A DNA stretch of 45,686 bases from a virus (IMGVR_UViG_2663763339_000005:1-45686); one strand, 5' to 3'. Positions 18,119 to 36,955 are shown, counted from the stretch's first letter. Numbers and translations: made by a program. The notes: a model not told the origin generated them from the letters alone.

Positions 18119-18477
18119 CTTATTATCCTGCATTGTTAAAAACGGCAGAATCCTATGTGACAACAATTAAACGATAGTTAAATGGATTGATGAAAATTAA
18201 AACTATATAGGTGGATGCTCAGCCTATTGGAGGAGGGGGGCACTCAGAATCCTGTGGAATGAAATAAACCGCTCTATCTGTCCATTACCCTTTTAGCTGC
18301 GCTGTATCGTCGCCGTATTCCCGCATTAACCATGACCGTAGCCCGACGGGGAATTCCTTCTGCGTGAGTGTGCGGGAATAATCAAAAACGATGCACACCG
18401 GGTTTTACTGTGCTGACAGACGCAGGGTTACCCTCATAGTCGCTTTTCCGGTGCGATGGTGGAAGAAACCGGGATGT

Positions 18478-18672
18478 TCATCCATCATCACTTTGGATTG
18501 ATGTATATGCTCTCTTTTCTGACGTTAGTCTCCGACGGCAGGCTTCAATGACCCAGGCTGAGAAATTCCCAGACCCTTTTTGCTCAAGAGCGATGTTAAT
18601 TTGTTCAATCATTTGGTTAGGAAAGCGGATGTTGCGGGTTGTTGTTCTGCGGGTTCTGTTCTTCGTTGACAT
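18478..18672 (-). CDS. YlcI-like small protein (DUF3950-like)
   Basis: 64 aa MSTKNRTRRTTTRNIRFPNQMIEQINIALEQKGSGNFSAWVIEACRRRL...; recalled as DLP12 ylcI-like. Confidence 0.6.
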   Translation of the reverse strand: MSTKNRTRRTTTRNIRFPNQMIEQINIALEQKGSGNFSAWVIEACRRRLTSEKRAYTSIQSDDG

Positions 18673-18834
18673 GAGGTTGCCCCGTATTCAGTGTCGCTGA
18701 TTTGTATTGTCTGAAGTTGTTTTTACGTTAAGTTGATGCAGATCAATTAATACGATACCTGCGTCATAATTGATTATTTGACGTGGTTTGATGGCGTAGA
18801 TGCACGTTGTGACATGTAGATGATAATTATTATC

Positions 18835-19050
18835 ATTTTTGCGGGTCCTTTCCGGCGATCCGACAGGTTACGGGGCGGCGACCTCGCGGGTTTTCGCTAT
18901 TTATGAAAATTTTCCGGTTTAAGGCGTTTCCGTTCTTCTTCGTCATAACTTAATGTTTTTATTTAAAATACCCTCTGAAAAGAAAGGAAACGACAGGTGC
19001 TGAAAGCGAGCTTTTTGGCCTCTGTCGTTTCCTTTCTCTGTTTTTGTCCG
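18835..19050 (+). other. Helper prophage cos site (cosQ-cosN-cosB); cosN 12-nt cohesive end GGGCGGCGACCT at 18863-18874
   Basis: Sequence gcgggtcctttccggcgatccgacaggttacgGGGCGGCGACCTcgcgggttttcgctatttatgaaaattttccggtttaagg... matches the remembered lambda genome ends; immediately upstream of Nu1. Confidence 0.93.
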
Positions 19051-19061
19051 TGGAATGAACA

Positions 19062-19581
19062 ATGGAAGTCAACAAAAAGCAGCTGGCTGACATTTTCGGT
19101 GCGAGTATCCGTACCATTCAGAACTGGCAGGAACAGGGAATGCCCGTTCTGCGAGGCGGTGGCAAGGGTAATGAGGTGCTTTATGACTCTGCCGCCGTCA
19201 TAAAATGGTATGCCGAAAGGGATGCTGAAATTGAGAACGAAAAGCTGCGCCGGGAAGTTGAAGAACTGCGGCAGGCCAGCGAGACAGATCTCCAGCCAGG
19301 GACTATTGAGTACGAACGCCATCGACTTACGCGTGCGCAGGCCGACGCACAGGAGCTGAAAAATGCCAGAGACTCCGCTGAAGTGGTGGAAACCGCATTC
19401 TGTACTTTCGTGCTGTCGCGGATCGCAGGTGAAATTGCCAGTATTCTCGACGGGATCCCCCTGTCGGTGCAGCGGCGTTTTCCGGAACTGGAAAACCGAC
19501 ATGTTGATTTCCTGAAACGGGATATCATCAAAGCCATGAACAAAGCAGCCGCGCTGGATGAACTGATACCGGGGTTGCTGA

Positions 19582-19607
<26 letters not shown>
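19062..19607 (+). CDS. nu1: Terminase small subunit Nu1
   Basis: 181 aa matching lambda Nu1 (MEVNKKQLADIFGASIRTIQNWQEQGMPV...). Confidence 0.96.
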
Positions 19608-23288
<3,681 letters not shown>

Positions 23289-25005: not shown

Positions 25006-25281
25006 ATGTCGATTTACACAACCGCCCAGCTGCTGGCGGCAAATGAGCAGAAATTTAAGTTTGATCCGCTGTTTCTGCGTCTCTTTTTCCGTGAGAGCTA
25101 TCCCTTCACCACGGAGAAAGTCTATCTCTCACAAATTCCGGGACTGGTAAACATGGCGCTGTACGTTTCGCCGATTGTTTCCGGTGAGGTTATCCGTTCC
25201 CGTGGCGGATCCACCTCTGAATTTACACCGGGATATGTCAAGCCCAAGCACTTAGCATGGCTTTCTGAGGCTTTCGTGTAG
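25006..25281 (+). pseudogene. E: Major capsid protein E, 5' fragment (codons 1-81 intact, then 9 element-derived codons and stop), disrupted by insertion
   Basis: MSIYTTAQLLAANEQKFKFDPLFLRLFFRESYPFTTEKVYLSQIPGLVNMALYVSPIVSGEVIRSRGGSTSEFTPGYVKPKH matches lambda gpE N-terminus; divergence begins exactly after 25250. Confidence 0.92.
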
Positions 25282-25413
25282 TTGCTGGTTTTTACACTTA
25301 ATCTTTTGATAATAAAGAATAAGTTTATCTGGCGCTTTCACTGGATTTTCCTCGTTATCTGTGTGTTGCAATCATCTCTGTATTGCAGCTTGTATTGCTT
25401 TTTGGGGCTAAAA

Positions 25414-26649
25414 ATGGCTGGCGAGAACAAACTGAGCGACAAAGCACTTAAAGGATATCTGGGGAAACCCAGAGAAAAGCAGATCACCATTGCTGATGGA
25501 AAGGGGCTTTCTATTCGTGTGAGTACCAAGGGGGCTGTGAGCTTTGTTTTCTTCTACAGGTTAGCAGGTGGCCGGGCTGCTCCGGTCTGGCTAACGTTGG
25601 GTAAATATCCTGATATGTCACTCAAACAGGCAAGGGAAAAGCGCGACGAGTGCCGTGGTTGGTTGGCTGACAAACGTGATCCGCGTATCCAGATTAAGAT
25701 TCAGGCTGAAGAACGCTTAAAGCCGGTCACAGTGGAGGATGCACTAAATTACTGGTATGAAAATTACTGTAAGGTGCGTCGTAAAACTCATGCTGTAACG
25801 CTTGGCAGATTTCGAAAGCATATCTTTCCCTATATCGGTCATTTGCCCGTAAATGACACTCACCTATATGAATGGCTGGACTGTTTTGACCGAATTAAAC
25901 GTAATGCACCAGTTATGGCGGCGTATGTTTTTTCTGACACTAAATTAGCTCTTCGTTTTTGTCGGGTACGCCAGTACGCGACGTGTGATGCTTTAAAGGA
26001 TTTGCGCATGAGTGATGTGGGGCAGATTGCAGGTAAGCGGGATCGGGTTCTGGATGAAGCCGAACTGGGCCAGCTCTGGAAGGCAATTTTTGTCGAGCCT
26101 GATTTAAAACTAATGTCTGAATACACGCGAAAAATGTTTGTGCTTTGTACAGTATTTGGATGTCGAATGAGTGAAGCCCGATTATCTGAATGGAGCGAAT
26201 GGGATCTCGAAAGTTGGGTTTGGACTGTACCAAAAGATCACTCAAAAACTGGTGTTGAAATCGTCAGACCAGTACCTGAAATTCTACGACAGTGGGTAAC
26301 GGATGTTCACGAAGAGACAAAACATACTGGTTATGTGCTGGGAAGTCTGCGAATTAGAGAAAGCGTAAGCAAGATTGGGGGGAAAATCGGTAAACGTTTG
26401 GGCCATGAAAAACAATGGTCACTACACGACCTTAGAAGAACGCTATCTACTCATCTAAGTGATCTCGGTGTTGAATTTTATGTAGTAGAACAACTGTTAG
26501 GCCATGCGCTACCTGGCGTGGCAGGTGTTTACAACCGGAGTAAGTTTATGGCTAAAAAACTGGATGCTCTGGAACTCTGGACTACATATCTCAATAGCAT
26601 CGCAGGTGCTGATTCAAAAGTGACAATCCTCAAACAAAAGGCTGGTTAA
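25414..26649 (+). CDS. Tyrosine integrase, P4-like family (element integrase)
   Basis: ORF 25282..26649; start at Met 25414 (MAGENKLSDKALKGY...); C-terminal HDLRRT...GH...Y catalytic motifs; adjacent to left attachment junction. Confidence 0.88.
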   Translation: MAGENKLSDKALKGYLGKPREKQITIADGKGLSIRVSTKGAVSFVFFYRLAGGRAAPVWLTLGKYPDMSLKQAREKRDECRGWLADKRDPRIQIKIQAEERLKPVTVEDALNYWYENYCKVRRKTHAVTLGRFRKHIFPYIGHLPVNDTHLYEWLDCFDRIKRNAPVMAAYVFSDTKLALRFCRVRQYATCDALKDLRMSDVGQIAGKRDRVLDEAELGQLWKAIFVEPDLKLMSEYTRKMFVLCTVFGCRMSEARLSEWSEWDLESWVWTVPKDHSKTGVEIVRPVPEILRQWVTDVHEETKHTGYVLGSLRIRESVSKIGGKIGKRLGHEKQWSLHDLRRTLSTHLSDLGVEFYVVEQLLGHALPGVAGVYNRSKFMAKKLDALELWTTYLNSIAGADSKVTILKQKAG

Positions 26650-26650
26650 C

Positions 26651-26878
26651 ATGAAAAAAATGGCAATTGTTGATAAAAAGGGTCTGGAGTACATTCCTAA
26701 CATCGATCGTATGATCCGTGAGAAAGAATGTCGGGAGCTAACCACTCTTGCAAACAGCACACGCTGGAAGCTGGAGAAGGAAGGAAAATTTCCTAAGCGG
26801 ATCAAGATTGGTTCCACTGCTGTTGCATATCGTCTTTCAGAAGTGCAGGCATGGATTCGAGGTGAGTGGGTAGTTTAA
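26651..26878 (+). CDS. AlpA-like transcriptional regulator/excisionase
   Basis: 75 aa; ...RELTTLANSTRWKLEKEGKFPKRIKIGSTAVAYRLSEVQAWI is a typical AlpA HTH; directly downstream of integrase. Confidence 0.8.
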   Translation: MKKMAIVDKKGLEYIPNIDRMIREKECRELTTLANSTRWKLEKEGKFPKRIKIGSTAVAYRLSEVQAWIRGEWVV

Positions 26879-26904
26879 ATTATCTCAGAATAAAATATTA
26901 TGAA

Positions 26905-26938
26905 TTACTGATTTGAGAATTTGTACTCAAATCAGTAA
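26905..26938. terminator. Bidirectional hairpin between alpA and convergent membrane-protein gene
   Basis: TTACTGATTTGAG...CTCAAATCAGTAA 13-bp inverted repeat in AT-rich context. Confidence 0.5.
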
Positions 26939-26947
26939 TAACATTCT

Positions 26948-27484
26948 TTATAAGAGATTAAATCCAAATAAAGAGTAATCATATACCGGGGTGCATTGCA
27001 TCCCACTGAATATGCTGATGTTTTTTTCTGTTTCTATCCTTTTTTCAATAAGTTGTTGTATATTTTTACAGTACAATTTGTGTGTGATGTTATTATCGTA
27101 AGCCTGATATAGCAACGTCAATGTTGACGCTAGGAAACATACAGATAAAATTAAAATAATATATGCAGTTTTTTTATTTTTTGTCCATGATCTATTTGTT
27201 TGTGAAATATAAAGAATTCTGAGGTGGATAATGGTGAGAGACAATAGCAGGCCACTCAATAAAATAAGTATTGGGTTTGCGTATTTTATTAATGGTTGAG
27301 AGCAAAAAACTATTATAGCTCCTGTGACTGCGTATGAGAAAAAGGAGTGATTAAACTTCTTACTCCTTCTCTCAAGTATTTTAATTTCATCTTGTGTGGG
27401 GGTTTTAGATGCCTCTAATATAAGTTTATTGAATGTTTCTGTTATCTTGTTTTTTGTGTTTGTGGCTATTTTTTTTAGATTCAT
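26948..27484 (-). CDS. Hypothetical membrane protein (element cargo)
   Basis: 178 aa, very AT-rich, hydrophobic segments (AVTGAIIVFCSQPLI..., ILILLSGLLLSLTIIHL..., AYIILILSVCFLASTLTLL); opposite strand to core element genes. Confidence 0.5.
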   Translation of the reverse strand: MNLKKIATNTKNKITETFNKLILEASKTPTQDEIKILERRSKKFNHSFFSYAVTGAIIVFCSQPLIKYANPILILLSGLLLSLTIIHLRILYISQTNRSWTKNKKTAYIILILSVCFLASTLTLLYQAYDNNITHKLYCKNIQQLIEKRIETEKNISIFSGMQCTPVYDYSLFGFNLL

Positions 27485-27834
27485 AGCATTCTAACTCCCT
27501 TAACTTATTTATTACTTTCTCTTTATGATAAGAGAGGGGAATGACTTGGTAAAGTGATTTGTCATTAATAATGATAATCCTTGCGATAAATATTTCTGCA
27601 AGTTATTTATCTGTTTGTTGCTATCTTGTTAAGCGTTGGGTGTGGTTTATGTTTGGAGCGACTTTATTTAATCGTGATTTTATGGATTTATATTTATATC
27701 CTGTAAGATAAGCGCATGTTAGTTCAGGAGTAGTGTCAGATAAAATTATTCGGAGTAGAACTACCTTTTCTGTTTATTGCCAGTATTTACATAGCAATGC
27801 GCCGTAGTTACTCACATCACGGCGCTGATACTAA

Positions 27835-28137
27835 TTATTCAGATTCTTTGGCTTTACGCCGCTGGAGTTCTTCACGAGCGACGGCTACGAGTTGCCCGAT
27901 TTCCTCCGCTGCCTTGATGCCGATTTGTTCGACCTTAGCTAAGGCATCCAGTGAAGACACGAGGGGATTTTCTCCGCTTCCTTCTGCCTGGCGGCGGGCG
28001 ATCTCACCGCGCATGGCGGTTACTATGAATCCGGCGTTGCTTTCGCCGTCCAGTTTTACGGATTCCATGCCCTCCATAACATCGTGGGGAACCCTGATCG
28101 TTGTCATTTGCGATTTTGCATTTTTGTATACAGACAT
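27835..28137 (-). CDS. Putative ribbon-helix-helix transcriptional repressor of the element
   Basis: 100 aa; N-terminal TTIRVPHDVMEGMESVKL...GFIVTAMRGEIARRQ fits beta-strand/helix/helix RHH pattern; divergent from operon containing primase across an operator-rich region. Confidence 0.5.
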   Translation of the reverse strand: MSVYKNAKSQMTTIRVPHDVMEGMESVKLDGESNAGFIVTAMRGEIARRQAEGSGENPLVSSLDALAKVEQIGIKAAEEIGQLVAVAREELQRRKAKESE

Positions 28138-28139
28138 AG

Positions 28140-28345
28140 TTAATCACCAATTTGTTATGTGTATATCACTATACACAAAAGTGAGATATAAAAACACTTG
28201 CAATGTATATCACCACAATATAATGTATATCTCACATTATGGTAGCTATGTATCTCACAATGATCGATTCATAAAAACGACGAAACCCGGCAGTGCGCGA
28301 ACACTAACCGGGCTTCTAACCAAACCGTTAAACGAGGTAACGACT
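28140..28345. promoter_or_regulatory. Operator-rich divergent promoter region of the element
   Basis: Repeated TGTATATC(A/T)CAC-like motifs in both orientations (tgtgtatatcactatacaca, gtgagatata, tgtatatcacc, tgtatatctcac, tgtatctcac). Confidence 0.55.
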
Positions 28346-28711
28346 ATGGCTGGAACACAGCATACCCAAACTCACCCTAAATTTATATACATCTTTCTGG
28401 CGCTACATCGCGATCGCATAGCAGATGGAGCAACTACGGTACATGTAGCCGCTGACACGCTGGTTGATGCCCGCAAGATGGTTAAGGAGATGGGCTATAC
28501 TGCGGCTTTCTGGAAAGGGCGGGAAGAAAACACGCTGTTTATTCAGAAATGTGAAAACAATTTCATCTGGCGTTTTATCGCCCTGAGTACGGCACAACCG
28601 CGCGTGATTACCATCGAGGCCACCAGCGAACAGGAAGCCCGCCAGCAATCCCCAACTGGCTGCGTGATGATATTCGCCGCCCGTATTCGTCAGGAGGTGT
28701 GCCATGAATGA
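28346..28711 (+). CDS. Hypothetical protein, first gene of element rightward operon
   Basis: ORF 27797..28711 trimmed to Met 28346 preceded by GAGG; 121 aa; internally repeated small domain; function unknown. Confidence 0.45.
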   Translation: MAGTQHTQTHPKFIYIFLALHRDRIADGATTVHVAADTLVDARKMVKEMGYTAAFWKGREENTLFIQKCENNFIWRFIALSTAQPRVITIEATSEQEARQQSPTGCVMIFAARIRQEVCHE

Positions 28712-28928
28712 TCTTTATTTTAAAGTGCTGACACATGCTGAAAACGCGCTCGTTTGTGGCAAAAATATGCGAGAAATCTTATCAACTTGGCTTGATGGGA
28801 CAACAAATGCGGAACACGATGAACGGGATGCTAATTTAGCTGGAGCGTTAATTACGTTACTTGATCCTGTCATCAAAGAGCTGGATGAAGCTATAAAAAT
28901 ACACGACCAGAGCTATACCGGAGAATAA
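28704..28928 (+). CDS. Hypothetical protein
   Basis: 74-aa ORF translationally coupled to upstream gene. Confidence 0.4.
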   Translation: MNDLYFKVLTHAENALVCGKNMREILSTWLDGTTNAEHDERDANLAGALITLLDPVIKELDEAIKIHDQSYTGE

Positions 28929-28930
28929 AA

Positions 28931-29218
28931 ATGAAAAATAAATTTTCTGGCTTTATTGCCAGCGGTCAAACTCATTCAAAAATCAGCCTTGGGGATATTT
29001 TCAAAGATAGCTATGGCTATCGAGTAAAGATTATTTCGGTTGATGATCGCCGTGTCTCTTATTTGCGTGATGGTTATGATTTTGAATGTGTTATGCCGCG
29101 TCAGCAGTTCGAAAGAGATTTCATTCTGGTAAAAAATTGCAAGACAGATAATCAGAGGCGTGCCGCAGGCTATATCCGCAAAATTCGGGCAATGTTAGTT
29201 GCCGGAGGTAACAAATGA
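28931..29218 (+). CDS. Hypothetical protein
   Basis: 95-aa ORF immediately upstream of and overlapping primase start. Confidence 0.4.
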   Translation: MKNKFSGFIASGQTHSKISLGDIFKDSYGYRVKIISVDDRRVSYLRDGYDFECVMPRQQFERDFILVKNCKTDNQRRAAGYIRKIRAMLVAGGNK

Positions 29219-31035
29219 AACGTGCTCCGAACTTAAAATACCAACCGCGCGACAAAATGACAGAAGTCATCATTTTTGCTGGCAGTGATGCCTGGAGCCA
29301 TGCAAAAGAATGGAATGAATGGGCGGGTAAGCATATTGCAGCAGATGATACACCACCAGTAATTCTGGGTACGGAACAACTGGAAAACCTGGATGATATG
29401 CAAATTATCGATGAAGGCCGTCATTATGTGCGTGTTTATCGTGCCGGAAAGATCGCAGAGAAAAATCTGACGAAGGTTGCGACATTACTTGCTATTGCAG
29501 GCGTAAAGGAAGCACGTTGTTACCGTAGCTTTGTTGATCGAGAGCCTGAAGACTGGACTCCGCGCCTTGTCGGCCTAAAAGCTGAAGCGGAGCATGGGGA
29601 AAGTCTGGTGATTGAACTGCCAGTGAAGAAGGCAGAGCGCAAAAATGACGAGCGTGCTTCATCTTTGGCGTTGAATCAGATGGGGGCCAGCCAGCGCGGT
29701 GAAGTTCTCCTGGCACATTACGGCGGCGAACTGGCAATCAATGCCGACTCTGACACCGTTCATCATTACAACGGCGTTGTATGGGAGCCGGTTCAGGATA
29801 AAGAGTTACAGCGTGCTATGGCGCAGATTTTCATTGATGCGGAGATCAGCTATTCGCAGAACGCCATTAAATCGGCGGTAGATACCATGAAGTTAAGTTT
29901 GCCTGTAATGGGGAATACAGCCCGTAACCTGATTGGATTCAGTAACGGGGTATTTGATACCAGAACAGGTAATTTTCGGGATCATAACAAAAACGACTGG
30001 TTGTTAATTGCCAGTGAATTACCTTTCAGCCCACCAGCAGAGGGGGAAACGCTGGCAACACATGCGCCGAATTTCTGGAAGTGGTTGCGCCGTTCGGTGG
30101 CTGAGAATGACCGCAAGGCAGATCGCGTACTGGCGGCATTATTCATGGTGCTGGCGAACCGGTACGACTGGCAGTTATTCATTGAGGTAACAGGGCCGGG
30201 GGGAAGTGGTAAAAGCGTGATGGCGGAGATTTGCACCATGCTGGCGGGTAAGGCTAATACAGTATCAGCAAGCATGAAGGCGCTGGAAGATGCAAGGGAA
30301 CGTGCGTTAGTGGTTGGCTTTTCGCTGATTATCATGCCGGATATGACCCGCTACGCTGGTGATGGGGCAGGGATTAAGGCCATTACAGGCGGTGACAAGG
30401 TGGCAATTGACCCGAAACACAAAGCCCCCTATTCAACGCGTATTCCGGCAGTAGTGCTGGCGGTTAACAATAACGCCATGTCATTCAGTGACCGCAGCGG
30501 GGGGATCTCACGTCGTCGGGTGATATTCAATTTTTCGGAAGTTGTACCGGAGAACGAACGCGATTCGATGCTGGCGGAAAAAATAGAAGGTGAGCTGGCG
30601 GTAGTGATTCGTCATCTGCTTACACGGTTTGCTGATCAGGACGAAGCCAGACGCCTGTTATATGAGCAGCAGAAATCTGAAGAAGCACTGGCGATAAAGC
30701 GAGAGGGGGATTCGCTGGTGGACTTCTGCGGCTATCTCATGGCATCGGTAATGTGTGATGGCCTGTTAGTGGGTAATGCTGAAATTGTGCCATTCAGCCC
30801 ACGCAGGTATCTCTATCATGCCTATCTGGCTTATATGAGGGCACATGGGTTTGGTAAACCTGTAACACTGACGCGCTTCGGTAAAGATATGCCGGGGGCA
30901 ATGGCGGAATATGGCAGGGAGTATATGAAACGGAAAACGAAGCACGGTTTGCGTTCAAACGTGACACTGACGGAGGAATCAGAAGACTGGATGCCATCAT
31001 GTGTATCGGTCACTAATGACGATAGCAAAAATTAA
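29215..31035 (+). CDS. Primase/helicase, phage-plasmid P4-family (D5_N + SF3 helicase-like C-terminal domain)
   Basis: 606 aa; Walker A GPGGSGKS; region NGVFDTRTGNFRDHNKNDW...; followed by iteron array. Confidence 0.85.
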   Translation: MKRAPNLKYQPRDKMTEVIIFAGSDAWSHAKEWNEWAGKHIAADDTPPVILGTEQLENLDDMQIIDEGRHYVRVYRAGKIAEKNLTKVATLLAIAGVKEARCYRSFVDREPEDWTPRLVGLKAEAEHGESLVIELPVKKAERKNDERASSLALNQMGASQRGEVLLAHYGGELAINADSDTVHHYNGVVWEPVQDKELQRAMAQIFIDAEISYSQNAIKSAVDTMKLSLPVMGNTARNLIGFSNGVFDTRTGNFRDHNKNDWLLIASELPFSPPAEGETLATHAPNFWKWLRRSVAENDRKADRVLAALFMVLANRYDWQLFIEVTGPGGSGKSVMAEICTMLAGKANTVSASMKALEDARERALVVGFSLIIMPDMTRYAGDGAGIKAITGGDKVAIDPKHKAPYSTRIPAVVLAVNNNAMSFSDRSGGISRRRVIFNFSEVVPENERDSMLAEKIEGELAVVIRHLLTRFADQDEARRLLYEQQKSEEALAIKREGDSLVDFCGYLMASVMCDGLLVGNAEIVPFSPRRYLYHAYLAYMRAHGFGKPVTLTRFGKDMPGAMAEYGREYMKRKTKHGLRSNVTLTEESEDWMPSCVSVTNDDSKN

Positions 31036-31048
31036 ACTTATGGAATAA

Positions 31049-31280
31049 CTGTTCACCACTGTTCACCCTGTCATAAATATCTTTTATATCAGTATATTAT
31101 AGGGTGAACAGTTATTTATGAACTGTTCACCAAACTATTCACTGTTCACCTTTTTGATTGTTTATTGAGCTTCAAGGGTGAACAGTGGTGAACAGTTGGT
31201 GAATAGTTTTTGTGAAACTGTTCACCCATTAACATTATGAATTAAAAGAGAAAATATCAAAAGGTGAACAGGTGAAGGGT
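31049..31280. repeat. Element replication origin: ~10 copies of TGTTCACC/GGTGAACA iterons in both orientations
   Basis: ctgttcaccactgttcaccc, gggtgaacagtt, gaactgttcacc, cactgttcacc, gggtgaacagtggtgaacagttggtgaatag, actgttcaccc, aggtgaacaggtgaaggg read directly. Confidence 0.8.
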
Positions 31281-31322
31281 TAAAACGCAAAAATTTTAAT
31301 TTACTGCTGTGAGATAAAGCCT

Positions 31323-31568
31323 ATGACAGCGAAGCACACAAAAAAATCACAATCGCACGCCCTTGATTTGACGGAACACTGGTTAAGGGTGTCGATAAAA
31401 ATCATCGACCGCAACGCCGGGGAAGGATACGCGAAAGCACATCCCGAACTGATTAGCGCATTCATGACAACGGCGGCTGCAAACTTTGCCACTCTGACCG
31501 AACGGGAGATTGCTGAAGCGGAGGAAGTGACAACAATCAATATTAAGTCCGGAGAGCAGGCAGCATGA
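31323..31568 (+). CDS. Hypothetical protein
   Basis: 81-aa ORF downstream of ori, coupled to SSB gene. Confidence 0.4.
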   Translation: MTAKHTKKSQSHALDLTEHWLRVSIKIIDRNAGEGYAKAHPELISAFMTTAAANFATLTEREIAEAEEVTTINIKSGEQAA

Positions 31569-32014
31569 CGGCGCAAATATCAGTTTACGGGCGGTTGGTG
31601 GACGACCCGCAGACAAAACAGACCAGCAAGGGCACCCCCATGACGCTGGCGCGTATGGCGGTATCACTGCCCTGCAGTCAGTCGGATGACGGTCAGGCGA
31701 CGATGTGGTTATCTGTCCTGGCGTTTGGCAGACAAGCCGACGCGCTGGCAAAGCATCACAAAGGCGAACTCCTGAGCGTGGCGGGTAACATGCAGATGAG
31801 CCAGTGGACTGGACAGAACGGCGAAACGCGGCAGGGCTGGCAGGTTATCGCAGACAGCGTAATCAGTGCGCGATCGGTGCGACCGGGCGGCAATAAAGGC
31901 CAACAGGGGCAGGCTACTGACGCACTGAACAGAGCAAAACAACAGGCAGATCAGCAAGGAAGCCAGCCACCAGTGGGAGATAATGAGCAATGGGGAGATG
32001 ATATCCCGTTTTAA
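31565..32014 (+). CDS. Single-stranded DNA-binding protein (SSB)
   Basis: 149 aa; OB-fold N-terminus, Gly/Gln-rich linker and acidic C-terminal tail ...GDDIPF characteristic of SSB. Confidence 0.85.
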   Translation: MTAQISVYGRLVDDPQTKQTSKGTPMTLARMAVSLPCSQSDDGQATMWLSVLAFGRQADALAKHHKGELLSVAGNMQMSQWTGQNGETRQGWQVIADSVISARSVRPGGNKGQQGQATDALNRAKQQADQQGSQPPVGDNEQWGDDIPF

Positions 32015-32231
32015 ATATTGCCAATAAAAAAAGGCCGGAAAAAATAAATTTTCCGGCATGCTACATAAATCCCGACCAAAGGGAGTGAAGATATTAACAC
32101 TAATTTTCCGCACTGAAGTTGTCACCCCAAAACTTTATACAACATTGCACTCGGTTGCATGTATTCGCATGACAAATATCGGTGATAGCATATATCCACA
32201 ATTATTTTTAATGAATGCAAAGAGGATGCGT

Positions 32232-33272
32232 ATGGTTGATTTATATTCGCCTACTCAGCTTGTACAGGTGGTTAATGCTGTAGATGTACAAAAACAACTA
32301 AATGCGTTGTTTACCAGTTTGTTTTTTACTCGCTCGGTAATGTTTGAATCGCGCGATATTATTCTTGATACAATCGACGATCCAAATATCCCAATTGCAG
32401 CGTTTTGTTCTCCTATGGTGGGTAGTAAAGTTTCACGTGACGAAGGGTACGAATCAAAAACAATTCGTCCAGGCTATATGAAGCCGAAAAGCAGCATTGA
32501 TCCAAATAAGTTAGCTGTGCGCCCTGCTGGTGTATCACCTGAGCAATACAATGCTTTTGGGGCGCGTAATATTAAAGTTAAACAGGCGATTGTAAATCAA
32601 GCTAAAGCTATTCGTGCACGTATTGAATGGCTTGCTGTTCAGGCAATCACAACGGGGAAAAATATCATTGAGGGCGATGGTATTGAACGTTATGAGCTGG
32701 ACTGGAATATTAAACCACAAAATATCATCACTCAGTCTGGCGGTGCTGAGTGGTCAGGTAAGGATAAAGAAACTTTTGATCCAAATGATGATATTGAGAG
32801 CTACGCAGAATTTAGTGAGGGCGTCACTAATATTATCATTATGGGCGGTAATGTATGGAAGAAATACCGTTCATTCAGAGCGATAAAAGAGGCTCTGGAT
32901 ACCCGTCGTGGTTCTAATTCCGAACTGGAAACGGCCCTTAAAGACCTTGGTGATTCGGTGAGTTTTAAAGGGTATATGGGCGATGTTGCGATTGTTGTTT
33001 ACAGCGGGCGTTATACCGACGAGGACGGAACAGAAAAACATTTCCTTGATCCTGATTTGATGGTGCTTGGCAATACGGCTCTTCAGGGGATTGTCGCCTA
33101 TGGCGGTATTCAGGATCCGGAGCTAATCCGAATGGGGCTGACTAAAGCCGAACTTGCACCGAAAAACTATATTGTGCCTGGTGATCCGGCTATTGAATAT
33201 GTGCAGACACATTCAGCACCACAGCCAATACCGGCCCGCATCAATCGTTTTGTTACCGTTCGCATTGGCTAA
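32232..33272 (+). CDS. Major capsid protein, lambda gpE family (element-encoded divergent paralogue)
   Basis: ORF 32058..33272; start Met 32232 preceded by AGAGGA; clear alignment to lambda E (ITQSGGAEWSGKDKETFDPNDDIESYAEF...NIIIMGGNVWKKYRSFRAIKEALDTRRGSNSELETALKDLG..YKG..GDVAIVVYSG); ~346 aa versus 341 for lambda E. Confidence 0.88.
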   Translation: MVDLYSPTQLVQVVNAVDVQKQLNALFTSLFFTRSVMFESRDIILDTIDDPNIPIAAFCSPMVGSKVSRDEGYESKTIRPGYMKPKSSIDPNKLAVRPAGVSPEQYNAFGARNIKVKQAIVNQAKAIRARIEWLAVQAITTGKNIIEGDGIERYELDWNIKPQNIITQSGGAEWSGKDKETFDPNDDIESYAEFSEGVTNIIIMGGNVWKKYRSFRAIKEALDTRRGSNSELETALKDLGDSVSFKGYMGDVAIVVYSGRYTDEDGTEKHFLDPDLMVLGNTALQGIVAYGGIQDPELIRMGLTKAELAPKNYIVPGDPAIEYVQTHSAPQPIPARINRFVTVRIG

Positions 33273-33281
33273 GGGGGAGCA

Positions 33282-33623
33282 ATGGCTACTCATTACACTG
33301 AACTCATGGCTGGCACTGAAGCACTGGTGACTACGCTGGGGATATTTTCAGCTAATAAAGGGGTAATTCCTGCATTTACGCCACTGATGCAGGAAGATGC
33401 AACAGGTGCACTGGTAGTATGGGATGGTTCGAGCGTAGGTAAAGCGGTTTATGTTTCCGCTGTACAAATCGACACCGCGAAAAAAACACAGGCTCAGGTC
33501 TATAAGACAGGTGTCTTAAATGTTGATGCTCTGAACTGGCCTGAGTCTGTTAAAGAACTGTCAGTAAAGGTTGCAGCGTTTGTTGGCTCAGGTATTTCTG
33601 TTCAGCCGCTGGCTCGTGTGTAA
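33282..33623 (+). CDS. Head decoration protein, lambda gpD family (element-encoded divergent paralogue)
   Basis: 113 aa; PLMQEDATGALVVWDGSSVGKAVYVSAV...YKTGVLNVDALNWPE...FVGSGISV aligns with gp[28 protein letters not shown]...[15 protein letters not shown]...FAGTAISI. Confidence 0.8.
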   Translation: MATHYTELMAGTEALVTTLGIFSANKGVIPAFTPLMQEDATGALVVWDGSSVGKAVYVSAVQIDTAKKTQAQVYKTGVLNVDALNWPESVKELSVKVAAFVGSGISVQPLARV

Positions 33624-33634
33624 AGGGGGATACA

Positions 33635-34018
33635 ATGCAGAATGATTACAATGACCTTAAGCCAATTGCCGAAATGATGTACCCGAATCAAGCTGTAGAG
33701 GAATTAAAAGCTATCGCTGACAAAATGTGTTTAAGCGAGCGCCTTGTTGATATGAATCAGGTGATGGAAATTACAACCCTGAGTCGTCGTACACTGCTAA
33801 ACCTTGAGGCTAGTGGAGAGTTCCCGGAGCGTGTGCAGGTTACGGAAGGGCGTAAGGCCTGGTATTTAAGTGAAGTGATCGACTGGATAAATAATATTCC
33901 TCGCGCTTCTGAATATTGCCGCGTACCTGTCCCAAAAAAGCCAGATGCGGCGCTATGCCTCAAGATTGAGCGTGTACGCCGCAATGCACGGGATGGTCGC
34001 TATAAGCTGATTGGTTGA
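33635..34018 (+). CDS. Small HTH protein adjacent to element cos (candidate packaging-redirection / Nu1-like DNA-binding factor)
   Basis: 127 aa; MNQVMEITTLSRRTLLNLEASGEFPERVQVTEGRKAWYLSEVIDWI is a MerR/AlpA-like winged HTH; ends just upstream of cos-like site. Confidence 0.45.
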   Translation: MQNDYNDLKPIAEMMYPNQAVEELKAIADKMCLSERLVDMNQVMEITTLSRRTLLNLEASGEFPERVQVTEGRKAWYLSEVIDWINNIPRASEYCRVPVPKKPDAALCLKIERVRRNARDGRYKLIG

Positions 34019-34029
34019 TGAAATTAGGG

Positions 34030-34250
34030 CCCGCTCTGGCTGGCGGGTCCTTTCCGGCGATCCAGGACGTTACGGGGCGTCAGGCGCGCAGATTCTTGCT
34101 ATTTATGACAATTTTCTGCGATTTGCCGTTTCTGTTCTTCTTCGTTGTAACTATATGTTATTAATGGAAATGCCACCTAAAAAGAAAGGAAATGGTAAGC
34201 GCTATTTTGAGCTAAAAACAGCTTAACCGTTTCCTTTCTCCAAAATTTAC
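34030..34250 (+). other. Element cos-like site (lambda-like cosQ, variant cosN GGGCGTCAGGCG at 34075-34086, cosB-like R/IHF elements)
   Basis: ggcgggtcctttccggcgatccaggacgttacgGGGCGTCAGGCGcgcagattcttgctatttatgacaattttctgcgatttgccgtttctgttcttcttcg...aaaaagaaaggaaatgg aligns block-by-block with the helper cos at 18840-19040. Confidence 0.8.
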
Positions 34251-34260
34251 TGAGGCGGCT

Positions 34261-34686
34261 ATGAATCCATGCGCAGAAGTCATGACAACTATCAAACTAA
34301 GCGGATCTTTAGCTTCTTTGTTCGCCAGAGAACATCAGCGCCTTATCGGTCCGACGCGTGAGGCATTAAGGGTATTATCAGCCACTATTCCGGGATTTGA
34401 GAAATTCATGAACACTAGCAAGGCTTGAGGACTCACTTTCGCCGTGTTTGTGGATAAAAATAATGTCGCGCAGGATGATCTCGATTTTCCAAATGGTGGT
34501 CGTACGATTCGAATTGTTCCGATCATTATGGGGAGTAAGCGTGCTGGTGTTCTGCAAACCATTCTTGGCGCTTTCTTGGTGGTTGGTGGTGTTCTGGGGG
34601 CAACGATAGGGCAAGCATGGAACGGTGGTGTGTGGAGCGGCAAGTATTTTCTATTGGCAGAAGCCCATTCCGCCAAGATAGGCTAG
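34261..34686 (+). pseudogene. Tail assembly protein I-like ORF interrupted by a single in-frame TGA (34426-34428)
   Basis: N-part MNPCAEVMTTIKLSGSLASLFAREHQRLIGPTREALRVLSATIPGFEKF and C-part ...RTIRIVPIIMGSKRAGVLQTILGAFLVVGG resemble helper gpI (LYGDLQRFGRRIDLRVKTGAEAIRALATQLPAFRQKL / AVIHIVPRVAGAKSGGVFQIVLGAAAIAG); same frame across the stop. Confidence 0.45.
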
Positions 34687-34781
34687 ACGTATAAGATCGG
34701 TTACAATCTATAAATCAGCTGTTGAATTATTGAATTTTAACCATATTTATCAGATGGACTTCATTCAAAAAGGTAACTTTG

Positions 34782-35468
34782 ATGGCCGGACAATTAGACG
34801 AAGCAGCAAAACAGATTTTGGGTACCTTACTGGCAGATTTTACAGATCGAGGGTTAACTGCACAGGATTTAAAAAATGGTTATGAAGGCCCGAACATCAA
34901 TGCGCTAGCTACTGCAGTATGCAACGTCGCTGATTTTACATCTGTAGATTTTGAAGTTGCCTTTGGCGATCTCGAAAAAAGCAAACTAATCAAAACTGGC
35001 CCCATGAAAATGTTCGATAATGATCACAATAGCTCTGTGATCATTATTGCTTCTTATAGCCTACGTGAATATGTTTATTTGACGGAGGCTGGATACAAGG
35101 AGTCCAGGAAAGTACCAAATCGCCCACAACGTGTTCAGCGTATAGTCAATAATCTAACGATCACCGGCGGACATTTCAGCAATACGCAATTAGGGCAGGG
35201 AGAGGTCGTTTCCCAAACCCAAAACATCACAAGCAGTTCCGATTCTGAAATAGTTGCTAAGCTGATTTCTATCATTGAAGAACAGGGGCAAGTAGTTAAC
35301 AGCGATCAACGTTCTGATATTGAAGCAGCTGTGGCAGCCGCTAATGAAGGTGATGGTAAAGAAGCGAAATCATTGCTGTCTAAAGTATGCGGTCCTGTTT
35401 GGGAGTCTGTGCAACCAGTAATATGGCCGATCATTGGTGAGTTGGTTAAGAAAGGGCTCGGGATTTAA
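34782..35468 (+). CDS. Hypothetical protein (element cargo, unknown function)
   Basis: ORF 34779..35468; ATG 34782 preceded by AGGT; 228 aa, acidic, no recognised family. Confidence 0.45.
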   Translation: MAGQLDEAAKQILGTLLADFTDRGLTAQDLKNGYEGPNINALATAVCNVADFTSVDFEVAFGDLEKSKLIKTGPMKMFDNDHNSSVIIIASYSLREYVYLTEAGYKESRKVPNRPQRVQRIVNNLTITGGHFSNTQLGQGEVVSQTQNITSSSDSEIVAKLISIIEEQGQVVNSDQRSDIEAAVAAANEGDGKEAKSLLSKVCGPVWESVQPVIWPIIGELVKKGLGI

Positions 35469-35660
35469 TTTAATAAATTCTAAAAGGGCTGTTTGGGTAG
35501 TATTTTTATGGGGCTCTTCAATTAAAAGGAGTCATAGGGTCAAACGATGTGCCTATGACTCCTGGATAAAGCCATCAGAGAATATTAGTGTTAACAATTT
35601 CTCTTCAGCCCTTGTTTATACGATGCCAGCTTCAGAACCGAATCAACGCTCATGCGATCT

Positions 35661-35954
35661 TTAGCATCTCGGTAATGACAGTAAGTTATTATTCCATCGA
35701 CCATCAGCATAAGTACGTATAAATTTCCGCCCTCCCCCTCCTGGATCAACGACACCTACATCAGCACGTTTGCCATAACTATCAGTGACATAGAAAGTAT
35801 GTAACTTGTTCTCAATTGAATTAACTACATCTGCCACAGTCCACTTACTTCCAGGGGGATTAAATTGAGGGCTTCCCACATGAGTAATGTGTTCATGAAG
35901 GGCGTTCGAACTGGAGAGAGTAATACAAGTTAATCGTACATCAACCATCTTCAA
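35661..35954 (-). CDS. Hypothetical small protein, possibly DUF3892-like (element cargo near right junction)
   Basis: 97 aa with ITHVG and NNLLSLPRC motifs recalled as DUF3892-like; opposite strand, AT-rich. Confidence 0.4.
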   Translation of the reverse strand: MKMVDVRLTCITLSSSNALHEHITHVGSPQFNPPGSKWTVADVVNSIENKLHTFYVTDSYGKRADVGVVDPGGGGRKFIRTYADGRWNNNLLSLPRC

Positions 35955-36174
35955 CTCCTTATTTACTGTGAAAAATCATAAGATACAGCATGTATCGAAA
36001 TACAGCAGGGTGAACAATTTCGATTTACGAGGACTTAGCAAAGTCTCTTTCTCTTAAACTGTGGGCTTGTATTGCAGGTTGTATTGCAACTGTAGCTAAG
36101 CAATATCAGTTGTAAGCTTTATTTCTTTTACAGTCAATCGTATAGCATCGTATTTGACTCATGTAGCCCAAGCA

Positions 36175-36955
36175 TGAGGTGAATCCGCAGATGACCCTGC
36201 GTCGCCTGCCGGATGAAGATCCACAGAATCTGGCGGACCCGGCTTACCGCCGCCGTCGCATCATCCTGCAGAACATGCGAGACGAAGAGCTGGCCATTGC
36301 TCAGGTCGAAGAGATGCAGGCAGTTTCTGCCGTGCTTAAGGGCAAATACACCATGACCGGTGAAGCCTTCGATCCGGTTGAAGTGGATATGGGCCGCAGT
36401 GTGGCGAACAACATCACGCAGTCCGGCGGTACGGAGTGGAGCAAGCGTGACAAGTCCACGTATGACCCGACCGACGATATCGAAGCCTACGCGCTGAACG
36501 CCAGCGGTGTGGTGAATATCATCGTGTTTGATCCGAAAGGCTGGGCGCTGTTCCGTTCCTTCAAAGCCGTCAGGGAGAAGCTGGATACCCGTCGCGGCTC
36601 TAATTCCGAGCTGGAGACAGCGGTAAAAGACCTGGGCGAAGCGGTGTCCTATAAGGGGATGTATGGCGATACGGCGATCGTCGTGTATTCCGGACAGTAC
36701 GTGGAAAACGACGTCAAAAAGAACTTCCTTCCGGACAACACGATGGTGCTGGGGAACACTCAGGCACGCGGTCTGCGCACCTATGGCTGCATTCAGGATG
36801 CGGACGCACAGCGCGAAGGTATTAACGCCTCTGCCCGCTACCCGAAAAACTGGGTGACCACCGGCGATCCGGCGCGTGAGTTCACCATGATTCAGTCAGC
36901 ACCGCTGATGCTGCTGGCTGACCCTGATGCGTTCGTGTCCGTACAACTGGCGTAA
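36175..36955 (+). pseudogene. E: Major capsid protein E, 3' fragment (codon 82 to stop), separated from 5' fragment by the inserted element
   Basis: ...HEVNPQMTLRRLPDEDPQNLADPAYRRRRIILQNMRDEELAIAQVEEMQ... matches lambda gpE; in-frame TAG immediately upstream of the junction; 245 nt (5' part) + 781 nt = 1026 nt, the exact length of lambda E. Confidence 0.92.

Follow-up and report, generated by a model that had tools for sequence, protein, structure and literature searches.

A lambda-type cos site with a variant cohesive end in a capsid-gene-embedded satellite, probably served by the helper terminase without an adaptor

How does a satellite reach the capsids of its helper when its cos site differs from the helper's in the cohesive end itself? 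The locus that raises this question lies in a 45,686-nt stretch of viral DNA (IMGVR_UViG_2663763339_000005), here called the window, and carries a lambda-like cos site with a divergent cosN beside a gene for a 127-aa winged-HTH protein (HTH127). A sequence-only reading had proposed that the divergent cosN needs a redirecting factor and that HTH127, as an analogue of the Rpp proteins of PICIs, supplies it. The evidence assembled below favors a simpler answer, to which we assign a probability of about 0.7: window positions 34045–34241 serve a 10.9-kb helper-embedded PICI (HE-PICI) of the 11capE type as its packaging site, and the helper terminase would cleave this site without an adaptor.

The window is filled by a lambda-like prophage, the helper, with the order cos (~18843–19039), Nu1, A, W, B, C, D, and then the tail genes, starting with FI; the helper Nu1 has a Pfam Phage_Nu1 match at 3.9e-101. 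A break at codon ~82 divides the helper's major capsid gene E into an N-terminal part (25006–25250) and a C-terminal part of 258 codons (36179–36955). The satellite lies between them, co-oriented with E, and the 10-bp att identity block AGCCCAAGCA occurs at both junctions (25241–25250 and again 36165–36174). The same configuration is present in RefSeq genomes, and a split major capsid gene is likewise annotated in RefSeq E. coli relatives.

Based on Pfam and PHROG matches, the satellite encodes, in order, a P4-type integrase, AlpA, an Icd-like remnant, DUF4222, a D5-type primase-helicase, an SSB, E-like and D-like proteins, and the 127-aa AlpA-family protein HTH127, followed by cos, a broken gpI-like ORF, and two cargo genes (coordinates in Table 1). 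The Pfam assignments thus give the HE-PICI order of int, alpA, ..., pri, and a late zone, and by this order and its insertion in E the satellite is a helper-embedded PICI of the published "11capE" type. The gpI-like ORF, related to the lambda tail-assembly protein gpI, is interrupted by a single in-frame TGA (34426–34428); several IMG/VR relatives carry the identical broken form, while the ORF is intact (191–198 aa) in Salmonella and Pluralibacter PICIs. Neither a terS nor an rpp gene was found after the satellite cos by blastx of the downstream region or by PHROG assignment.

Other features of the element lie outside the packaging region. An iteron-like repeat cluster at 31038–31271, just 3' of the primase-helicase gene, contains AGGGTGAACAGT as well as GGTGAACAG...CTGTTCACC palindromes and is probably the satellite replication origin. 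A doubled 20-nt motif, TGTATTGCAG[C/G]TTGTATTGC, occurs in near-identical copies near both element ends (25379–25398 and 36068–36087); it is reminiscent of the "doubled motif" described for the attP regions of HE-PICIs and may serve as an arm-type site for Int or as an RDF site. The interval from cos to attR forms a variable cargo slot (window 34779–35954; 18983–20125, 19288–20046, and 12903–14219 in the relatives L208, L209, and L002, respectively). In the window it holds genes for a 229-aa unknown protein and a DUF3892 protein, and in close relatives for a TIR-domain protein, a DUF2971 protein, or a 438-aa hypothetical protein. PADLOC returned nothing for the window's cargo genes, and PADLOC and NCBIfam together gave nothing useful for these genes or for HTH127.

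Table 1. Window coordinates of the helper and satellite features considered in the text
Feature	Position	Strand	Remarks
Helper cos	18843–19039	+	cosQ GGGTCCT 18843–18849; cosN core 18873–18884, GGGCGGCGACCT; R3 18925(+), R2 18979(-), R1 19026(+)
Helper terminase genes	Nu1 19062–19607; A 19582–21507	+	ORFs of 181 aa and 641 aa, both intact
Satellite (helper-embedded PICI)	25241–36174	+	10,924 bp (~10.92 kb) between 10-bp att identity blocks
Satellite lambda-E-like capsid gene	32232–33272		
Satellite lambda-D-like decoration gene	33282–33623		
HTH127 gene (127-aa AlpA-family winged-HTH protein)	33635–34018	+	Last gene before cos; stop codon 26 bp 5' of cosQ
Satellite cosQ	34045–34051	+	Heptamer GGGTCCT; same distance from cosN as in helper
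Satellite cosN	34073–34088	+	CG-GGGCGTCAGGCG-CG; predicted 12-nt cohesive end 34075–34086
Satellite R3-like site (predicted TerS (Nu1) binding)	34124–34140 (consensus match 34127)	+	CGTTTCTGTTCTTC; 1 mismatch to R consensus; offset 52 from cosN
Weak IHF-consensus match, I1 position	34148–34160	.	Between R3 and R2; 2 mismatches to WATCAANNNNTTR; offset 73
Satellite R2-like site	34178–34194 (consensus match 34181–34194)	-	Inverted
Satellite R1-like site	34225–34241 (consensus match 34228)	+	CGTTTCCTTTCTCC; 0 mismatches to consensus
gpI-like tail-assembly ORF (lambda gpI)	34261–34686	+	Directly after cos; PHROG 32/4946 matches on both halves

The block-by-block alignment with the helper cos described in the sequence-only reading was reproduced: window positions 34020–34270 align with 18820–19070 at ~80% mean column identity over ~250 bp, with no meaningful gaps and with identical subsite offsets. 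Within this alignment, 34045–34241 comprises a full lambda-type cos of cosQ, cosN, and R3/R2/R1, again ~80% identical to the helper site, so that the element is, as proposed, a satellite with a lambda-like cos of its own. In both sites cosQ starts 30 bp before core bp 1, and R3, R2, and R1 lie at offsets of 52, 106, and 153 from cosN. The R-site consensus, allowing up to two mismatches, has 7 matches in the 45.7-kb window, 6 of which are the two cos triplets; shuffled versions of the window averaged 1.22 matches and never had more than 4, so that none of 100 shuffles reached 7.

Conservation between the two sites is subsite specific. Identity to the helper is complete in cosQ (7/7) and in the CG dinucleotides flanking the two predicted nick sites (2/2 and 2/2, hence 4/4), is high in cosN bp 1–6 (5/6), R3 (13/16), R2 (14/16), and R1 (13/17 over the helper R1 segment), and drops to 2/6 in cosN bp 7–12 and to just 8/31 in the spacer between R2 and R1. 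Such retention of subsites amid near-random spacers fits selection for terminase recognition rather than a decaying relic, and the satellite cos is real and almost certainly functional. The divergence of the 12-nt core was also borne out: satellite GGGCGTCAGGCG departs from helper GGGCGGCGACCT at five positions (bp 6, 8, 9, 10, and 12) and agrees at bp 1–5, 7, and 11. The IHF-like site that had been proposed fared less well. A consensus match with 2 mismatches is there, at the same offset as one 2-mismatch helper match (73), but the best helper match has 1 mismatch and lies at offset 78, so the site is at most weakly indicated.

Two further features overlap the site. A 10-bp GC-rich hairpin at 34026–34051, between the HTH127 stop codon and cosN and with cosQ as its 3' arm, is kept in E. 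coli relatives; it was considered as a terminator or protein site and dropped, being no more stable than shuffled sequences (z = -1.2). A 71-aa "hypothetical protein" ORF annotated in RefSeq relatives (window 34011–34226) runs exactly across cosQ, cosN, and cosB and is almost certainly spurious.

We propose that the helper terminase itself acts on the satellite cos, with no adaptor protein. Helper gpNu1 would bind the satellite R3, R2, and R1 sites, which are set at the exact lambda distance from cosN, and this would position gpA for nicks 12 bp apart between the conserved CG flanks, freeing satellite DNA with 5'-GGGCGTCAGGCG cohesive ends. The conserved cosQ would permit termination, and a head of lambda size would be full with about four 10.9-kb units in tandem (43.7 kb).

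What is known of lambda-type terminases bears on whether the variant core would be cut in this way. TerL has low intrinsic sequence specificity, and its nicking between bp 12 and 13 is anchored by TerS bound at R3 (PMC9026076). Mutating cosN bp 7–12 has very little effect: C11G is without phenotype, in contrast to a 10-fold cost for G2C (PMC4669245). The natural sites of N15 and phiD326 differ from lambda in the right half at bp 9 and 12, and that of Gifsy-1 at bp 8, 9, and 11, while the CG flanks and cosQ are conserved among lambda-like phages (PMC4669245). The satellite site resembles those of these three phages (Feiss et al. 2015, PMC4669245), which have the same terminase type, in that its differences are concentrated at bp 7–12 and the CG flanks, cosQ, and bp 1–5 are kept; it goes further than they do, with 5/12 positions changed, including bp 6, compared with 2–3/12. 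Because the five differences fall mostly in the right half, where cosB-anchored TerL is tolerant of sequence, we regard the satellite core as a natural cohesive-end allele and not as a new specificity requiring a factor.

Variation of this kind proved widespread. A scan of IMG/VR for lambda-type cos sites in which bp 12 is not T, with allele counts that are lower bounds, found at least 9 non-canonical cores. GAAGGCG occurs at 34 or more loci, mostly in ordinary phage contexts; GCGTCCG at 27 or more, in phage-type contexts; ACGTCCG at 6 or more; and TCAGGCG, the variant seen in the window, at 36 or more. A or T at bp 6 is also found naturally, and the right half of cosN varies in the form of discrete alleles that each carry several substitutions. 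Among the IMG/VR matches listed, TCAGGCG stands beside an AlpA-like gene in 35/36 cases and is thus nearly restricted to satellites. We considered whether this allele is exclusive to them and rejected the idea, as it is also carried by L112, a related prophage in IMG/VR whose E gene is intact. The best INPHARED matches include no deposited phage with TCAGGCG; the two closest are 96.9% identical over 96 nt, and one of these, PhiR46_1, has GAAGGCG.

Several variant cores stand beside terminases very close to the helper's. PhiR46_1 encodes a Nu1 93% identical to that of the helper and a gpA 98.6% identical over its first 286 aa, and a complete E. coli prophage (L212), also with GAAGGCG, encodes a Nu1 and a gpA that are 99.4% and 98.8% identical. 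Closely related lambda-type terminases therefore coexist with at least three right-half alleles. Together with the retained cosB R sites and the tolerance of TerL at bp 7–12 (PMC4669245), these terminases speak against the earlier proposal that the variant cosN calls for a redirecting factor. The sites of L112 (1263–1274), L212 (~14365), and L217 (~1528) accompany near-identical terminases and have differing cores, with TCAGGCG in L112 and GAAGGCG in L212, which share one unusual left flank. Should the satellite's private cohesive end be no more than tolerated variation, it would be ordinary, a natural confirmation of the Feiss-lab view that cosN bp 7–12 are free.

The distribution of the allele follows a pattern without precedent in the literature that could be searched: satellites with a lambda-type cosB invariably have the non-helper cosN, and this allele is nearly restricted to elements embedded in a capsid gene. 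We compiled 51 unique haplotypes of the HTH127-cos module. Those with a lambda-type cosB (R3) include 0 canonical and 22 variant (TCAGGCG) cosN, compared with 16 canonical and 10 non-canonical among those with a GGTGG cosB and their own terS (Fisher 4e-6). Where status is known, 34/36 TCAGGCG loci are embedded in an E-type capsid gene; for canonical loci the count is 2/14. In all five helper/satellite composites examined in full, the satellite cos is unlike the helper's, either in cosN (the window, L208, and L209) or in cosB (L210 and L211). TCAGGCG stays fixed on at least 4 haplotypes of the left flank and at least 5 of the right and shows no drift, which pure neutrality would not predict.

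These associations are the basis of an alternative in which cleavage proceeds as proposed above but the allele is maintained by selection in a satellite that lies in cis with the helper cos and shares its type of cosB, because helper-satellite chimeras or end-joined products cannot circularize. The satellite and helper overhangs match at 7/12 bases, with a longest run of 5, and a mismatch at only 2 of 12 cohesive-end bases already lowers viable yield 4-fold (PMC4669245). With overhangs unable to pair, molecules cut at one satellite and one helper cos could not circularize, and co-injected DNAs could not join. Such molecules may be of packageable length: the satellite cos lies 15.2 kb 3' of the helper cos, so in an unexcised composite of ~57–61 kb, packaging begun at the satellite cos would arrive at the next helper cos after ~41–46 kb, a figure we derive from the 61-kb composite in PMC10111431, as the window holds part of the prophage. 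The fixation of TCAGGCG across several flank haplotypes also speaks against pure lineage history.

Set against this, the loci are phylogenetically non-independent, so the association of cosN with cosB may mark just the capE(-integrase) lineage; L210 and L211 are embedded satellites with a canonical cosN; the 41–46 kb length depends on a published composite; and there is no clear fitness argument for who benefits. We therefore consider selection for incompatible ends an unlikely explanation, and would say only that the pairing of a lambda-type cosB with a non-helper cosN may reflect either lineage history or cohesive-end incompatibility. If the latter is true, GCGACCT, GAAGGCG, TCAGGCG, GCGTCCG, ACGTCCG, and other cosN alleles would constitute "sticky-end compatibility groups" of lambda-like phages and satellites, and if selected they would provide a simple DNA-level isolation between the parasite and the host genome around it.

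We return to cleavage by the helper terminase alone and to the protein that had been proposed to make it possible. HTH127 is a real and conserved ORF. It lies just 5' of cos, as the sequence-only reading had it, and matches Pfam Phage_AlpA (PF05930) over residues 36–85 at 7.5e-9 (35.8 bits; gathering cut-off 21), PHROG 2790 at 3e-49, and the AlpA structure PDB 8c3t at ~2e-9 (2.2e-9). It is also 36% identical to the element's own 75-aa AlpA (4e-11). An AlphaFold2 (AF2) model built with 28 close homologs was poor, with a pLDDT of 57.6; a homolog search restricted to the HTH core yielded nothing but fragments and an alignment no deeper. Compared with the AlpA/Vis regulators and excisionases (PF05930, 8c3t), HTH127 is alike in its central wHTH domain (residues 36–95) but has ~35 extra residues at each of its N and C termini and is encoded in the late module beside cos, not beside int.

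Members of the HTH127 family are ~127 aa throughout, with an almost invariant HTH core, and homologs 50–98% identical are found across the Enterobacteriaceae in Escherichia, Salmonella, Enterobacter, Citrobacter, Klebsiella, Pluralibacter, Trabulsiella, Buttiauxella, and Scandinavium. The synteny E-like, D-like, HTH, cos, (terS), (gpI-like) is kept in helper-embedded elements as well as in chromosomal PICIs. In every IMG/VR locus with enough downstream sequence (79/80), and in Salmonella and Buttiauxella, the HTH gene lies directly 5' of cos, and the HTH-cos module occurs in 407/5426 (~7.5%) complete genomes of E. coli as well as in other genera. Based on these matches, HTH127 is a DNA-binding member of the AlpA family and a paralog of the element's AlpA, and its most likely role is that of a transcription or excision regulator expressed with the satellite late module. 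Since its adjacency to cos is so conserved, it may also bind DNA close to cos. In either case it represents a conserved but uncharacterized AlpA-like gene of the late/packaging module.

On the earlier proposal, helper terminase alone would not suffice for the variant cosN, and HTH127, by binding Nu1/A or the cos DNA, would turn cleavage and packaging toward the satellite in the manner of Rpp. In favor of this proposal are the position of the gene, whose end and conserved placement are given above, and its domain class, as HTH127 is a winged HTH of the HTH_17/MerR-like class to which the Nu1 DNA-binding domain also belongs; hhalign sets residues 36–85 in register with Nu1 residues 3–50, albeit at 0.4% probability against a Nu1/Rpp alignment. 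Rpp proteins, however, resemble the Nu1 DNA-binding domain, are encoded 3' of cos in the position of terS, and act on a replaced cosB while cosN is kept (PMC6739421). HTH127 departs from this pattern in each respect. It has no TerS-like N-terminal domain by BLASTP (no alignment with RppA), by hhalign, or by PDB sequence search, which found AlpA 8c3t and neither RppC nor TerS entries. Its gene is 5' of cos, while that of RppA is directly 3' of cos1. And the satellite cosB, far from lacking the helper R sites, retains R3/R2/R1, with the change in cosN. Accession numbers of HTH127 are absent from the supplementary files of the Rpp paper (PMC6739421).

The family as a whole also argues against a redirecting role. 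One HTH127 sequence ("allele 0") is found beside TCAGGCG, the canonical GCGACCT, and GAAGGCG cores and with both cosB types, and the protein shows no covariation with cosN or cosB type. HTH127 is found together with terS genes of satellites and, in Pluralibacter, alongside an Rpp-like ORF; since these packaging-specificity determinants vary while HTH127 is constant, it is no substitute for them. Conversely, L112 carries TCAGGCG without an HTH127 gene at the position directly 5' of its cos (84.7-kb contig), and TerL tolerates right-half changes in any case (PMC4669245). We conclude that HTH127 is very unlikely to act as an Rpp-like redirector, and the proposed analogy is not sustained. The idea that the cos-like sequence is a remnant without function of helper DNA once captured, suggested by the habit of HE-PICIs of capturing helper late genes and by the adjoining gpI-like pseudogene, is harder still to credit and was rejected on the subsite-specific conservation, the conserved spacing amid near-random spacers, the abundance of the module in complete E. 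coli genomes and other genera, and the experimentally functional cos sites of PICIs at the equivalent position.

The preferred reading, use of the satellite cos by the helper terminase without an adaptor, can be set beside the characterized PICI EcCICFT073 (Fillol-Salom et al. 2018/2019, PMC6092414, PMC6739421). Like the window's element, EcCICFT073 has, at cos1, a cosQ and a cosN of lambda type that follow E-like and D-like genes, and depends on the TerS and TerL of its helper, as the window's element presumably does. The two differ in which part of cos has changed: cos1 combines the canonical GGGCGGCGACCT with a replaced cosB (the CACCACCACCAC region), whereas the window's element combines a variant cosN with a helper-type cosB. 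EcCICFT073 encodes RppA (c1503, 144 aa, with a Nu1-like N-terminus) directly 3' of cos (L025:2660–3094), while the window's element has no rpp or terS there; 5' of cos it encodes c1501, which is no HTH protein, where the window's element has HTH127. As cosB is kept and cosN changed, the opposite of the Rpp systems, helper Nu1 should bind the satellite cos directly.

Sister elements of the satellite fall on the other side of this comparison. In L210, L211, and L213–L216 (~18411–19130) and in L204 (8384–9106), the cosB is rich in GGTGGTGG, the reverse complement of the EcCICFT073 cos1 motif CACCACCACCAC, and is followed by a Nu1-like TerS of the satellite's own, which is full-length and 36–38% identical to helper Nu1 with a conserved C-terminus. 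In a Pluralibacter PICI (L206, 8389–8830), cos, with the core GGGCGACGACCT, is separated from the HTH gene by an ORF that shares 35% identity with part of RppA.

The closest published element is the HE-PICI "11capE" with its helper prophage 50icd (Tommasini, Mageeney & Williams, NAR Genom Bioinform 2023; bioRxiv 2022; PMC10111431). It shares with the window's element the co-oriented insertion in an E-type capsid gene, the 10-bp att block, a length of ~11 kb, and the order int, alpA, Icd-like, DUF4222, pri, SSB, E-like, D-like, cos, with no terS (PMC10111431). Helper-dependent excision and replication, and these two only, were shown for 11capE, and a 258-bp cos-like stretch common to satellite and helper was already noted at the cos position (PMC10111431). 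That stretch was reported as 90% identical between the two, compared with ~80% in the window, where the cosB spacer has diverged; the paper mentions neither cosN (0 occurrences) nor a second AlpA-like gene beside cos (PMC10111431). The satellite class and the position of its cos are therefore already published, and what is added here is modest: a satellite-associated cohesive-end allele, its strict pairing with a helper-type cosB, and the AlpA-like gene. Taken with EcCICFT073 and the sister elements, these suggest two routes by which satellites come to a packaging site differing from that of the helper, one, well studied, through a cosB swap combined with Rpp or a satellite TerS, and one, undescribed, through a helper-type cosB combined with a private cohesive end.
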